This document shows positions 7,552-40,556 of a stretch of DNA of 64,000 nt, piece by piece. Origin of the DNA: a virus. The position numbers and the translations under genes are program-made. The notes beneath the pieces are model-generated. The model did no database searches. It worked only from the letters and a program-made list of their open reading frames with translations, and was not told the origin of the DNA. The stretch lies in the UHGV virus genome UHGV-0038496. One strand, given 5' to 3'. Each line of letters begins with the position of its first letter. Position 1 is the first letter of the stretch.

Positions 7552-8691
7552 TTGAGAGACTACCCATTACTTACCTCTATTGAGGAGTTAAAAGATCTTC
7601 TTGAACCTGATGCTAAAATCTACTACGACTTTGATCAGGTGGCTTATCAGGCTGCTGCAAGCTGTGAGAAACGCACCATCGAGGTCACTCACAAAGCGTC
7701 AGGACACAAGAAAGAGTTCAAGACCAGAACAGAGTTCTGGGGCAGACAGAAAAAAGCTGTAGGTGGTTGGCTGAAAGCTGAGAATGCTAACCGTGAAGCA
7801 CGTTGCAAGAAAGCTGGTAAAGAGTTCGTACCCTGGACCCGCGATGATTTTGATGTGCTGGATATACAGACACCTGAGCCTGTTGAGAATTGCCTCCACA
7901 CACTGAAATGCAAAGCTAACGCAGTGCTCAACCACCTCGGTATCCCAGTTGAAAGATGTGTTGGCGTGCTCGGTGGGGAAGGGAACTTCCGTCTGGATCT
8001 CCCTATGCCGGAACAGTACAAGGCCAACAGGGCTGACATGCTGCGACCCCTGATGCTGCCGGATGCACGTAGATACCTGCGAGAGCACTTCAACGCACAA
8101 GTGATCGACGGTATGGAAGCCGATGACTGGTTGGCAATCCAGCAGTATTCCGGTTGGCTACATTACCAACAGACAGGTAAATTCGACAAACTGGTGATCA
8201 GTATCGATAAAGATCAACGCCAGACTCCTGGCCTGCTGTTTGATCCGATGCGTAATGACAAAGGTGATTTTGTTCGTGAAACACCGATGCTGATCGACGA
8301 TTCCATAGGCCACATCTTCATGAAGCCGAACGGGGATGTTGGTGGCTGGGGCCAGATGTTCTTCCATTACCAAATGTTGTGTGGGGATACCGCTGATAAC
8401 ATCAAACCCTATCAGGGGTTGATTGCTAAAGGCCGTTTTGGTGATGCTTCTGCATTCCAGCTGTTATCCGTATGCGAGAGTGAACTGGAGCTGTGGGAAG
8501 CAACGATCCAGCAGTATAAAGAGTGGTTCCCAGATGGGCGGGTGAAATACACCGACTTCAACGGCATTGATCGGGACATTTCGGTTGGTCAGTGGATGGG
8601 CGTTATTTTCGATGCTGTCTATATGAAGCGTGTTTTCAATGACAAAACTTCTTTATCTTCGACTTTACGTCGAGTGGGGATTATCAAATGA
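7552..8691 (+). CDS. 5'-3' exonuclease / flap endonuclease family protein
   Basis: GMEADDWLA (EADD) and GDTADNIKPYQG (H3TH-like) motifs; TTG start with AGGAGGA RBS. Confidence 0.65.
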   Translation: MRDYPLLTSIEELKDLLEPDAKIYYDFDQVAYQAAASCEKRTIEVTHKASGHKKEFKTRTEFWGRQKKAVGGWLKAENANREARCKKAGKEFVPWTRDDFDVLDIQTPEPVENCLHTLKCKANAVLNHLGIPVERCVGVLGGEGNFRLDLPMPEQYKANRADMLRPLMLPDARRYLREHFNAQVIDGMEADDWLAIQQYSGWLHYQQTGKFDKLVISIDKDQRQTPGLLFDPMRNDKGDFVRETPMLIDDSIGHIFMKPNGDVGGWGQMFFHYQMLCGDTADNIKPYQGLIAKGRFGDASAFQLLSVCESELELWEATIQQYKEWFPDGRVKYTDFNGIDRDISVGQWMGVIFDAVYMKRVFNDKTSLSSTLRRVGIIK

Positions 8692-36883: not shown

Positions 36884-37594
36884 CTACATTCCATAATCCT
36901 CATCCTGCTTCTGAGCCATTCCATGATAAACTTCCCAGTACTTAGAGGCATACACCATATCCCATTCTTCCTGAGTCACCCATGCAATCATCCCACTGAG
37001 AATGTCTCTCACCTGTTCCCATTCTTCCCTTTGAGCAATAGCCTCTTCCTGTGTTTTGAATGCTTTCGCTATACGTTTTGTAACGGTATGACGAGTGACA
37101 GCAATACTTGCCCTCCAGTAAGTGTACGGGCCATTATGATATTCACTTACCCCACAAATACCAGACTTGTTAGTTTTGTGCATACCACTGTTAGTCATGT
37201 TCTGTAGGCGACTAACCAGTCTGAGATTGTCCAGGTGGTTGTTACCAGGGTCACGATCAATATGGTCAATCTCCATACCTTCCGGGATTGGACCATGATG
37301 CATCACCCAGATAATCCTTGCACCCTGGAGCAGAGTCTGTTTCCCGTCCACCAGCCAGCCTACAACATAGCGACCATCTTTAGCTGCATAGCTACCAGCA
37401 ACAGCCCCCTTCTTCGCATTAGAAGAACGAGTAAATTTATTCCTCAACACACCAAACTCAGCATCATAAACGAAATAGATGCTCCAGTCTGTAGTGTTAT
37501 ACACCTCCTCAAATTTCACCACAACTGTTTTGTTGTGATTGTTCTTCACAGCGTTATCATAATACGCCTGGGCATCAGCCTTGAACTCAAACAT
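36884..37594 (-). CDS. HNH homing endonuclease with AP2-like domain
   Basis: IDHIDRDPGNNHLDNLRLVSRLQN HNH motif; GICGVSEYHNGPYTYWRA AP2-like. Confidence 0.7.
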   Translation of the reverse strand: MFEFKADAQAYYDNAVKNNHNKTVVVKFEEVYNTTDWSIYFVYDAEFGVLRNKFTRSSNAKKGAVAGSYAAKDGRYVVGWLVDGKQTLLQGARIIWVMHHGPIPEGMEIDHIDRDPGNNHLDNLRLVSRLQNMTNSGMHKTNKSGICGVSEYHNGPYTYWRASIAVTRHTVTKRIAKAFKTQEEAIAQREEWEQVRDILSGMIAWVTQEEWDMVYASKYWEVYHGMAQKQDEDYGM

Positions 37595-38357
37595 CCTGAC
37601 CTCCGAAACCTTTTACCAGTATCGAAAATATACCACAAATGGCCTGAAGAGTCAAATCATTTCCCCTCTTTAAGCCTCTTTGATCCGATTAACATGCTAA
37701 TTATTCACAGAAAATACCCACACATAGCCTAAGCACTTGATTTCATTGTGAAATATGGCCTGAAGAGCACCACATATTTTAACATACCTTTAACATAATA
37801 CTTCCCCCGTATATACCTCCCCGCCCTGTCCAGGAGTCCCGTAAATACTGGCTTCCCCACAAATATCAGCACCACAAATATCACAGGCCTGAAGAGGGCC
37901 TCATTTTTTTTTATTCGCACCTCCCCCTCCCCCGTAGGGCGGTACATAGCCTGAAGAGGCATTCATACAATCAGGGGCAAATATCCCAGACTTACATTTG
38001 AGGTATTAGGCAGGCGAAACGCGACTCCTTCTCATAATGCGAATGATTCTCAAATATCACGGCTGCTTTCGTTATTGATAGCCTGGGCCTTGCAGCTATT
38101 GGCCTGGTTATTGCACGGTAGTTACTCACAGCGATTAATAGTTACACACAGAGATTATAGGGTTGACTGTTCACGCCCTCATTGTGTGGGGTTGAATAAT
38201 AACATGCGTTACAGTTTTCCACAGGAGCATTTAAGTTGATGATAAGCCTTCTCATTTGGGAATAATTATTACTTCGTATTGTTCATCATACGTAACACCA
38301 GTTATACGCACTTATGATCATCTGTACAGTAGTTCCACACAAAGGTAGGACACTGGG

Positions 38358-38397
38358 TTATCCACAGGTGGCAGGGTTATCCACAGACTTATCCACA
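38358..38397 (+). promoter_or_regulatory. cluster of three perfect DnaA boxes (TTATCCACA)
   Basis: TTATCCACA at 38358-38366, 38377-38385 and 38389-38397, same orientation. Confidence 0.6.
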
Positions 38398-39410
38398 GCT
38401 CACGTATGACGCTACGCGGAATAATCACAGGTCAAACGACAGGAAACGAAAGGAAACGAAAACAATCGAAAGAAGATTAATTGCGGTTTATTACAGCACG
38501 AAAAGATTAATCATTGCAATAGTTAGCCTGCTATTAATTATATTTACAGGGGTGACAGTTACGTCATGTTACAGATGACTGGGCATCATATTGCACTGGC
38601 ACACTACCATACCAGCTATATAACATGCCCCACAGATGCATCTTATAACTGGTCTGACCACTTACGCATAAAAAATCGTTGACAAAAAGAGCGAAATTTG
38701 TTAGGCATACTTTCCCCATACTTCGGTCATACTCCCCCCACAGTTTACAGTTTGAAAAGCCCATAATCACACCTCAGGCCTCTGGCCTTCGAGGTAACGC
38801 AGTTACGAGACACGCATTGAAATCATAACATCCCATGACTGTTTACACAGCGTAGCACTGAGGCCCCGCCGATTTTACACATCTGACAGTTTACACGCAT
38901 GACAGTTTACGCCTTGATTTACAAGGAAATAGTTGCGACATGTAACTACCGCAAGACGGTATAGTTGCGCCGTGTTATCGTTGCATGTGTAACTTTACCG
39001 TGAAGCCATAGGCTGAATGTGTAACATTACTTCAGCGTTATTGTCACAGATCTGATAGTTTGCACTCTACTCTTAACCAGTGTTATAGTAACACCTGTTA
39101 CTACTACTTTTGACATAATAACGCTGGGAAAACGTAACCGTTTTTGATTATTAACATGTAATAACCCAGCGTTACCATAACAATTTTTATTGTTATTGGA
39201 GGACATAATAACGCTGAGGATTATTACATGATAATTTATGATATAATTTCGCTGGCTATGCCAGGTGGACTACGTCCACCCCGTAGGGCGTTATCATAAA
39301 TTAGCGAGATAATAATGCTGGATAATAACACGGGGGTGTTATTGTCACTCAGCGTTATTATGTCGCTCCCTCCGGTCGCGCCATGTTATCGTTGCATAAT
39401 GTGATTATTG

Positions 39411-39545
39411 CATTCGCAAATTATTATTTATCTTATTTTACTTTATGCAATTTATATATTTTCATTGATTGTAATTTTATTTATTTTATATTTTATTGTA
39501 TCTCATAATCTAATTATATTACTAATATTATACTATATAGATTAT
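39411..39545. other. AT-rich tract (candidate DNA unwinding element)
   Basis: About 130 bp of very high A+T with short ATTTTAT-type repeats. Confidence 0.45.
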
Positions 39546-40092
39546 TGAGATACAGAATAATCACCGCCTGAAAGTATATTAATCCCACAGCAGAATAGTC
39601 ACTGCATGAAATAATGTGGGGTGGGATAGTCACACCTCGGCATGACTGCCTTGCGGAATAATCACCATATTTACCACACCTGCCAGGTTGTTGAGAATAT
39701 TTCTCATATGTTAGCTATGCACTAATATTGCATAATTAAAACATACCTATCAGATGCATCTTATCGTGACGCTACGTGAAAAATAGAATTTTGCGCCTAT
39801 AGTTATACCCGATTTTTCAAAAAATGGACTTTATAACTCACTGTTTTATAAAGATTTATAGTTGTTGACACAGCCATATAAAATGTGCATCAGCCGAAAA
39901 GTGTGAGATACTTCACAAAATGCCCTACATTTGACAGCCGAAAACTGAAAAAACTTAAAAACTATGTATGCAAATACAGCTATTTTACTGTGTGGTTAAT
40001 TTTTAGGCATTTTATTTTATGCATTGTTTGAATACCGGATTCACAGCTTGCCCATGAAGCTACGCTGAATAAATCACTATATTACAGACAAC

Positions 40093-40115
40093 AAAAAGGC
40101 CGCTTATTTGCGGCC
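40093..40115 (-). terminator. rho-independent terminator (minus strand)
   Basis: GGCCGC-ttattt-GCGGCC hairpin with T-run on minus strand; directly after stop of 40137-40556. Confidence 0.6.
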
Positions 40116-40136
40116 CCTTATTATTTCGTTGATAAA

Positions 40137-40556
40137 TTATAGCGCTTCGTATATTTCATAGATTCGATTTGCAAGGTCGTTACGGTAGCGGAATTTTTCG
40201 TCACGCTTGATCATTAAATCTTTATAGCCATACTCCTTAAGCACTTCATTAACTTTATGGCGGCATACCTGCATATTGTCCTGAGCGTCACCAATAAACT
40301 TGTTGCTGTGGTGCATTGCTTTAATTTCTTCTTCCAGGACCAGGGCAACTACCCGGACCGGATCAAGCTGGTAGGCGTTAACATCCATGCGGCACTGTAG
40401 GCGGCTTTTAACATCGTTTACCGGATATACTGCAACCTCTTCCCCGTCCACGTTGACAATAACCAGCTTGTCGCCGATCTCGAATCCTTTAGCCGCTGGA
40501 CCGTGGCAAAAAGCGTTATCAAAACTATATGCGGGATTGTTTGATTCAATGTTCAT
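40137..40556 (-). CDS. hypothetical protein
   Basis: First ORF of the minus-strand array; terminator downstream. Confidence 0.45.
   Translation of the reverse strand: MNIESNNPAYSFDNAFCHGPAAKGFEIGDKLVIVNVDGEEVAVYPVNDVKSRLQCRMDVNAYQLDPVRVVALVLEEEIKAMHHSNKFIGDAQDNMQVCRHKVNEVLKEYGYKDLMIKRDEKFRYRNDLANRIYEIYEAL

Follow-up and report, generated by a model that had tools for sequence, protein, structure and literature searches.

A 15-mer, GACATAATAACGCTG, recurs in direct and inverted copies at a single locus of UHGV virus genome UHGV-0038496, of which a 64,000-nucleotide stretch (the window) was analyzed. We conclude with high confidence that these copies base-pair as arms of a strand-specific, conserved branched hairpin element, which forms on the + single strand and is centred on what is here termed the Y module. 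All copies lie inside a gap of ~2.5 kb free of open reading frames (ORFs), and the gap has features of a replication-origin region. The complete proposal, in which the conserved strand-specific branched hairpin also serves as an accessory origin element, has in our judgment slightly less than an even chance of being correct.

The 15-mer copies are arms of nested hairpins

Exact copies of the 15-mer are present at 39112-39126 (+), 39202-39216 (+) and 39350-39364 (-), as a first-pass annotation of this DNA had listed them. The partial copies that it described between them were likewise recovered: CCCAGCGTTACC at 39165 (inverted), GATATAATTTCGCTG at 39240 and GAGATAATAATGCTG at 39306. A further inverted degenerate copy, CAGCGTTATTGTCAC, was found at 39033. 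When the whole window was searched with up to 3 mismatches, 8 matches to the 15-mer were obtained in 64 kb against an expectation of 1.72 +/- 1.24, and none of 100 shuffles reached 8. Six of these eight matches fall inside 39033-39364, and the 15-mer is confined to this one locus of the window.

Copy 2 and the inverted copy together constitute a perfect 17-nt inverted repeat (39202-39218 with 39348-39364). An inverted-repeat scan of the window (12-nt seed, arms less than 400 nt apart) gave four pairs in total, two of which come from the 15-mer cluster. Folding of the + strand predicts that the segment between these arms (39202-39364) adopts a nearly fully paired three-way junction of -71.2 kcal/mol (z = -9.6), with the degenerate direct copy GAGATAATAATGCTG (39306-39320) forming part of its left branch. 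Upstream of this Y module, AACGCTGGG within copy 1 pairs with CCCAGCGTT at 39165 to form an optional hairpin, X, that encloses AAAACG-TAAC-CGTTTT. The intervening copies look partial because they are the other strands of nested stems. An alternative fold joins copy 1 to the distal arm (39348-39364) and copy 2 to the copy at 39165. This arrangement lies within ~3 kcal/mol of the first, and the minimum-energy choice between the two pairings varies among relatives. The elements of the locus are listed in Table 1.

Table 1. Positions of the fold, its flanking repeats and the surrounding gap in the window
Feature	Position	Strand	Description
ORF-free gap	37595..40136	.	ORF lists; synteny with rV5 through gp153/gp154 (left) and gp159/gp162 (right)
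Left direct repeat DR1, GTTGCGCCGTGTTATCGTTGCAT	38964..38986	+	repeat family D3
15-mer copy 1 plus GG	39112..39128	+	5' arm of optional upstream hairpin X
Small hairpin AAAACG-TAAC-CGTTTT	39129..39144	+	within hairpin X; folds; sole substitution among relatives is in the loop
Degenerate inverted copy CCCAGCGTTAC	39165..39175	-	3' arm of hairpin X, partner of copy 1 AACGCTGGG
Palindromic hairpin P, ATAACAAT-TTTT-ATTGTTAT	39177..39196	+	folds
15-mer copy 2 plus AG	39202..39218	+	5' strand of the 17-bp outer stem of the Y module
Y left branch	39219..39320	+	perfect 12-nt palindrome TAATTTATGATA/TATCATAAATTA, 39232-43 with 39292-303
GC-rich insert at apex of left branch	39244..39291	+	hairpins CTGGC-TAT-GCCAG, GGTGGAC-TAC-GTCCACC and CCC-GTA-GGG
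Y right branch, hairpin GATAATAACAC-GGGG-GTGTTATTGTC	39321..39346	+	11 bp including one T.G pair
Inverted 15-mer copy plus CT	39348..39364	-	3' strand of the outer stem
GC-rich box GCTCCCTCCGGTCGCGCC, then right direct repeat DR2 (39375-39397)	39365..39397	+	repeat family D3
AT-rich block (86% A+T)	39412..39561	.	candidate DNA-unwinding element; duplex stability scan

The fold is conserved across lineages with unrelated arm sequences

A module occupies the same position in Vequintavirus and in Stephanstirmvirinae, with arm sequences that are unrelated to those of the window. The Vequintavirus module consists of arms GACATAATATAAAAGCAG/CTGCTTTTATATTATGTC and a G-loop hairpin, followed by a GC hairpin. 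The equivalent of the right branch in rV5 is AACTATCAC-GGGG-GTGATGGTT, and its T.G pair is replaced by C:G in slur12. Arms of the GCTAATAAT type characterize Stephanstirmvirinae, where the inner bases read AAGCCA in Phapecoctavirus, AACGCA in Justusliebigvirus, and ACCGCA or AACACA in Klebsiella phages. Altogether six arm variants were seen (GACATAATAACGCTGAG, GACATAATATAAAAGCAG, GCTAATAATAAGCCA, GCTAATAATAACGCA, GCTAATAATACCGCA and GCTAATAATAACACA), and the partner is perfectly complementary in each of them.

Covariation was quantified with RNAalifold on an alignment of 11 Stephanstirmvirinae sequences. The consensus contains 53 pairs, 14 of them with compensatory changes on both sides, and 99.4% of the pair cells are standard. 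In 500 shuffles, no measure attained its observed value, and a slid partner column paired in 25-51% of cells. The compensatory changes extend to the inner hairpins as well as the arms. Fold z-scores against shuffles ranged from -8 to -13 across modules. A covariance model built from Stephanstirmvirinae only matched the Vequintavirus modules over their full length on the + strand (E ~1e-4, 199 kb searched), indicating that the modules are homologous. A scan of IMG/VR with ATTATGTCGC...GTCGCGCC returned mostly chance matches and one additional rV5-type locus. No family was identified in Rfam 15, where two matches stayed at chance level (E of at least 0.6), and our literature search found no description of the element.

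Non-canonical pairs are confined to one strand sense

All non-Watson-Crick pair columns in the three lineage alignments are G.T on the + strand: 12 in Stephanstirmvirinae, 3 in Vequintavirus and 5 in the window lineage. Against these 20 G.T columns, there is not a single A.C column. Protein sites in duplex DNA under strand-symmetric mutation would be expected to show both mismatch types equally often. The exclusive use of G.T therefore points to selection on a folded + single strand, either RNA or single-stranded DNA (ssDNA), rather than on duplex protein sites. The minimum free energy of the + strand was below that of the - strand in all 10 modules, by 3-20 kcal/mol, and with DNA parameters the + strand was the more stable one in 9 of the 10. 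For the window itself, the + orientation is given by synteny and by the 5-to-0 count of G.T columns. The synteny markers, found on the right side of the module, are a G-run, the GTCGCGCC box, DR2 and the AT-rich block.

Close relatives vary at hairpin tips and in the upstream hairpin

The window lineage was examined in an alignment of the window with six metagenomic relatives (L003, L036, L068, L069, L070 and L073). Almost no variation was seen in the Y module or in the AT-rich DNA on its right, and the DNA to its left is hypervariable, with both substitutions and indels. A 90-nt segment carrying copy 1 (39112-39201) behaves as an all-or-none unit, being present in the window, L003, L069 and L073 and missing from L036, L068 and L070. 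Hairpin X covaries among its carriers: the pairing is GGG/CCC in the window and L003, GAG/CTC in L069, and GGG/CTC, with a + strand G.T, in L073. This single pair, seen as G:C, G.T and A:T, is the only one that varies within the window lineage. Within the module, close relatives differ by insertions, and these occur solely at hairpin tips. The 48-nt three-hairpin insert (39244-39291) is found in the window, L003 and L070 and, with compensatory stem changes, in L068; it is not found in L036, L069 and L073. It is the sole part of 39195-39420 that matches known phages, and BLAST of the whole gap in a near and a distant mode, run against 50,697 phage records, likewise gave no other match.

GC-rich inserts were also observed elsewhere. 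L068 carries an additional GC-rich multi-hairpin insert of ~90 nt in the loop of its right branch. The three-hairpin mini-insert, of ~35-50 nt, occurs outside the window at L001 5693-5735, on the reverse strand of L002 at ~8118-8165, and in L068, and a second copy sits at an unrelated site of contig IMGVR 3300010279_000001. The appearance of the GC-rich insert is that of a small mobile or expansion element with hairpin tips as its targets.

Flanking repeats and the adjacent AT-rich block

The module is set between direct repeats, with a third, degenerate copy of the flanking repeat at 39391-39413. Equivalent repeats of ~20 nt flank the modules of rV5 (GCCATGCCATTCGTTTGCAT) and Stephanstirmvirinae (TGCTAATGAT). 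The GC-rich box also has counterparts, namely the hairpin GCGAC-TCC-GTCGC in rV5 and, in Stephanstirmvirinae, a GC hairpin with compensatory changes (helix 5). Phage FV3 (L044, NC_019517) has one copy of the flanking repeat at 1680-1710. The whole module is absent there, and the covariance model gave no match. Judging from the sequence, this state is consistent with a deletion by recombination between flanking repeats.

The AT-rich block begins ~50 nt to the right of the module. A scan of duplex stability identified it as the least stable 150-bp duplex of the window, at -149.7 kcal/mol against a mean of -200.1 (standard deviation 8.0), that is, more than 6 standard deviations away; the next least stable segment scored -171.7. 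The corresponding position ranks first or second for instability at the loci of rV5, L036, L037, L038 and FV3. Between the window, L003 and L036 the block hardly changes. A cluster of three perfect DnaA boxes (TTATCCACA), all in one orientation, lies at 38358-38397 and accounts for three of the four exact copies in 64 kb. This finding also takes in 38215-38223, and TTTTCCACA occurs close by.

A possible role at a replication origin

The direct-repeat flanks, the most easily melted DNA of the window, a gap full of repeat families and the DnaA boxes of this lineage led us to take the gap as a replication-origin region. The module could then be an accessory origin element that acts once the adjacent AT-rich DNA has opened. 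On opening, the + strand would snap into the Y fold; for a fork that moves left out of the AT-rich block, this strand would be the template of leading-strand synthesis. The fold might be recognised by its structure, as a landing or priming signal from which leading-strand synthesis proceeds leftward. Alternatively, the Y fold could form in a same-sense transcript of the origin and act in this way there. An origin-associated function of this sort is, taken by itself, possible rather than probable. A broader version is more doubtful still: that the module represents a new three-way-junction family common to Vequintavirinae-like phages and Stephanstirmvirinae and is the key cis signal of their origin, as an ssDNA priming or helicase-loading site or as a priming RNA, with the near-isoenergetic pairings acting as a conformational switch.

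Several observations weigh against an origin-associated + strand fold. The origin assignment is based on architecture. Flanking genes converge on the gap in the window and Vequintavirus, so that co-orientation logic predicts a terminus and not an origin at this place. The DnaA boxes are kept in L003 and L036 and are absent from the gap of the rV5 lineage. No initiator protein was identified. With regard to the RNA version, neither a conserved sigma-70 promoter nor an intrinsic terminator was found in the three lineages. FV3 lacks the module and was nevertheless isolated as a phage, indicating that the module is dispensable. Finally, the best match of the covariance model in the window is the module itself, but on the - strand. 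This is attributable to the nearly palindromic nature of the module, for which reason the model could not settle orientation in the window lineage. Regarding gene direction, genes of the window run rightward up to ~36 kb and leftward from 40.1 kb. The flanking genes are co-directional in Stephanstirmvirinae, indicating that convergence on the gap is no constant feature.

The gap itself is on record. Its rV5 counterpart, 104013-106618, is labelled 'non-coding' without explanation, and the rV5 paper remarks on the absence of ORFs and a change in skew there, its authors having been unable to locate the origin (Kropinski et al. 2013, PMC3606486). What is new here is the structured module, together with its covariation and strand bias, and the flanking repeats and neighbouring AT-rich block are not described in that paper (PMC3606486). 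Phages of the rV5-like and phi92/phAPEC8-like groups are common coliphages and much-used therapy candidates whose origin is unmapped. A covariation-supported element beside a block resembling a DNA-unwinding element offers a concrete, mutable target for locating it, and a starting point for asking how a replisome with a T7-gp4-type primase-helicase initiates in these phages. The modules also enlarge the list of structured phage nucleic acids by a candidate family with good support, and they point to small GC-rich hairpin inserts that seem to home to hairpin tips.

Comparison with known systems

By analogy, the module may work most like the single-strand initiation signals that lie beside AT-rich origin segments, and its topology resembles that of parvoviral T/Y hairpins. 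Single-strand initiation signals include the G4-type complementary-strand origin, with three hairpins, and ssiA/ssiB of the RSF1010 oriV, which lie in an inverted repeat beside an AT-rich segment and iterons; they act only after the duplex has been opened. Shared features are strand-specific multi-hairpin folds of ~100-200 nt, conservation of structure over sequence, and a position beside an AT-rich region and repeat arrays. In contrast to these signals, the module is a closed three-way junction and not a row of hairpins, has no sequence similarity to them, and is found on one strand only, with no mirror element seen to the right of the AT-rich block. For a putative priming role of the module, it is the geometry that fits this comparison.

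Terminal hairpins of parvoviruses, including adeno-associated virus, adopt a T/Y-shaped A-B-B'-C-C'-A' fold and form the genome termini of these ssDNA viruses, with Rep-binding and nicking sites. As in the Y module, an outer stem closes two internal palindromic arms over ~120-150 nt. The module, however, is internal to the circularly permuted genome of a double-stranded DNA phage, and neither an HUH nor a Rep gene was identified. Integron attC sites, like other recombination sites folded from ssDNA, combine variable sequence with conserved structure, strand specificity and conserved inverted-repeat ends (here GACATAAT or GCTAATAAT). Unlike attC sites, the module has no integrase or recombinase nearby, occurs once per genome and shows no cassette structure. 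Likeness to iterons and operators lies in short repeated motifs in non-coding DNA flanked by AT-rich sequence, with the terminal motif iterated in some relatives; the differences are that the copies pair mutually, are neither tandem nor phased, show strand-biased wobble and have no recognised initiator or repressor gene beside them. The 'non-coding' region of rV5 at 104013-106618 (PMC3606486) is the homologous locus of the gap.

Alternative explanations

Selection on a folded + strand would also be expected if that strand were transcribed into a free-standing structured noncoding RNA. Such a Y RNA of ~120-250 nt would act in trans, for instance as a decoy or regulator directed at a host defence or at an RNA-binding protein of the host, and would have no role in replication. 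The G.U-only wobble, the 14 compensatory pairs and a share of ~10% G.U cells are typical of functional RNAs, and the hairpin tips accept inserts in the manner of expansion segments. Hypervariable DNA to the left of the module recalls arms-race loci. A related rV5-like phage, PhiTE, encodes the anti-ToxN RNA pseudo-ToxI at another locus; we considered this locus as a counterpart and rejected it, as it lies in a different place, near tRNA and structural genes. Several features fit an RNA less well. Neither a conserved upstream promoter nor a downstream terminator accompanies the module in the three lineages, many of the loops have 3 nt, which is commoner in DNA hairpins, and Rfam gave no match. 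A search for transcriptome data on these phages found none. The fixed association with direct repeats and the AT-rich block would also be left unexplained. On balance, we regard a noncoding RNA of this kind as unlikely.

The first-pass annotation had proposed an iteron- or operator-like arrangement for a sequence-specific DNA-binding protein. On such a model the 15-mers would be duplex sites for a phage or host protein, and the inverted copy would permit looping or dimer binding. The proposal is borne out in so far as the repeats form a cis-acting cluster within non-coding DNA whose context is origin-like; the identification as iterons or as operator half-sites is not supported. A degree of iteron-like iteration is real. 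Direct repeats of the initial 8-9 nt of the arm (here GACATAAT; GCTAATAAT for Stephanstirmvirinae) also occur among relatives: in Klebsiella phage KP13-26, four direct copies of GCTAATAAT stand upstream of the module, ahead of the inverted one, and Vequintavirus has GACAYAAT arrays with an 11-nt phase. In the window, neither GACATAAT nor ACAGTTTAC showed window-wide enrichment. Also in keeping with duplex sites, the arm sequence is lineage-specific, as it would be under co-evolution with a binding protein, and a candidate AT-rich unwinding element (39412-39561) adjoins the module as iterons would have it. Yet iterons comprise at least three direct repeats of ~17-22 bp, in tandem or helically phased, and the close relatives carry one or two direct copies (one in L036, L068 and L070), which, where there are two, are 90 nt apart and not in tandem. 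Operator half-sites would form a dyad with only a few bp between them and overlap the promoter of a regulated gene. The arms are 129 or 223 nt apart (129 nt across the Y module), neither promoter nor terminator scans inside the gap exceeded the expectation from shuffled sequence, and a promoter, a regulated gene and a downstream gene are all lacking.

The pairing data bear on duplex sites more directly. Every copy pairs with an inverted partner in a nested hairpin, and the arm sequences vary by lineage yet stay perfectly complementary. That all 20 non-Watson-Crick columns are G.T on one strand and none is A.C would be meaningless for a duplex, and compensatory changes are found in the inner hairpins too. 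The protein gp159, encoded next to the gap, is 92% identical across phages with different arms and has no recognisable DNA-binding domain. Independent protein sites in duplex DNA are thus quite improbable.

A relic of a miniature mobile element would have the 15-17-mers as terminal inverted repeats and the flanking repeats as a target-site or att duplication. The inverted repeats do lie between direct repeats of ~20 nt, and FV3, with its one direct-repeat copy, resembles an empty site. Miniature inverted-repeat transposable elements and insertion sequences, however, are expected in multiple copies with inverted repeats abutting the target duplications, and here nearly all records show a single copy per genome, with inverted repeats 13-90 nt away from the direct repeats. 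The same locus is occupied in two subfamilies with co-diverged sequence, the internal hairpins covary, and no transposase or integrase was found, leaving this origin of the module very improbable. Equally remote is a terminator or insulator, or a packaging (pac) site, suggested by the position of the module where convergent transcription units meet in the window and rV5 and by the annotation of one inner hairpin as a terminator in Murica, given that no U-tract follows the stems, none of them appears in the terminator scan, terminator-like sites instead flank the gap (37885-37901 and 40094-40119), the neighbouring Stephanstirmvirinae genes are co-directional, these phages are circularly permuted headful packagers, and a duplex pac site would leave the strand asymmetry unexplained.

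Genome context and other repeats of the gap

The window derives from a diverged rV5-like coliphage. PHROG matches include a ligase, an exonuclease, a polymerase exonuclease subunit, NrdD, PhoH and a Clp-like protease, and core genes share 72-79% nucleotide identity with Vequintavirus. No Rep-like domain was found in the ORFs flanking the gap. A free-standing HNH homing-endonuclease gene (36884-37594, - strand; Pfam HNH_3, E = 1e-18) lies inside otherwise non-coding DNA, and rV5 has no gene there. Once this inserted gene is set aside, the gap probably starts near 36.4 kb.

On the other side, the gap is bordered by the gp159 homologue (40137-40556, - strand), which is 92% identical to that of rV5 when most neighbouring proteins are 30-45% identical. 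All homologues found in this narrow family are at least 82% identical. The protein had no Pfam or PDB match, and its AlphaFold2 model has a predicted local distance difference test score of 65. With a narrow family, no match and a low-confidence model, it was dropped as a candidate binding protein. A role for an HUH or ssDNA transposase was also considered and dropped, as the 'transposase-like protein' of PVP-SE1/rV5 has no Pfam match. The gp153-like 'transcriptional regulator' failed as an anchor for the gap in Seunavirus, Mydovirus, Certrevirus and TH18, where the gene is located elsewhere.

Further repeat families of the gap are ACAGTTTAC, GGAATAATCAC and GCCTGAAGAG. The five exact copies of GCCTGAAGAG in the window all belong to the + strand and to the left portion of the gap (36421, 37642, 37758, 37887 and 37949), on both sides of the HNH gene. 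Four copies of GCRGAATARTCAC, all in the + orientation (38416, 39552, 39590 and 39653), flank the AT-rich block and the DnaA-box cluster, and the rV5 gap has four occurrences of CCTGAAGAG. The window at 38679-38912 and L039-L043 at ~1500-1720 share a conserved box, TTGACAA...TTGT, and, after it, phased arrays of short repeats, first 11-nt GGCATACTT / GACAYAAT units and then 16-nt ACWGTTTAC units, and the copy number of these arrays differs strongly among otherwise near-identical Vequintavirus genomes. Away from the gap, the second least stable duplex of the window coincides with an AT-rich imperfect hairpin at 1261-1338, in a short intergenic space, with 35-nt arms that are 83% complementary and an 8-nt loop.
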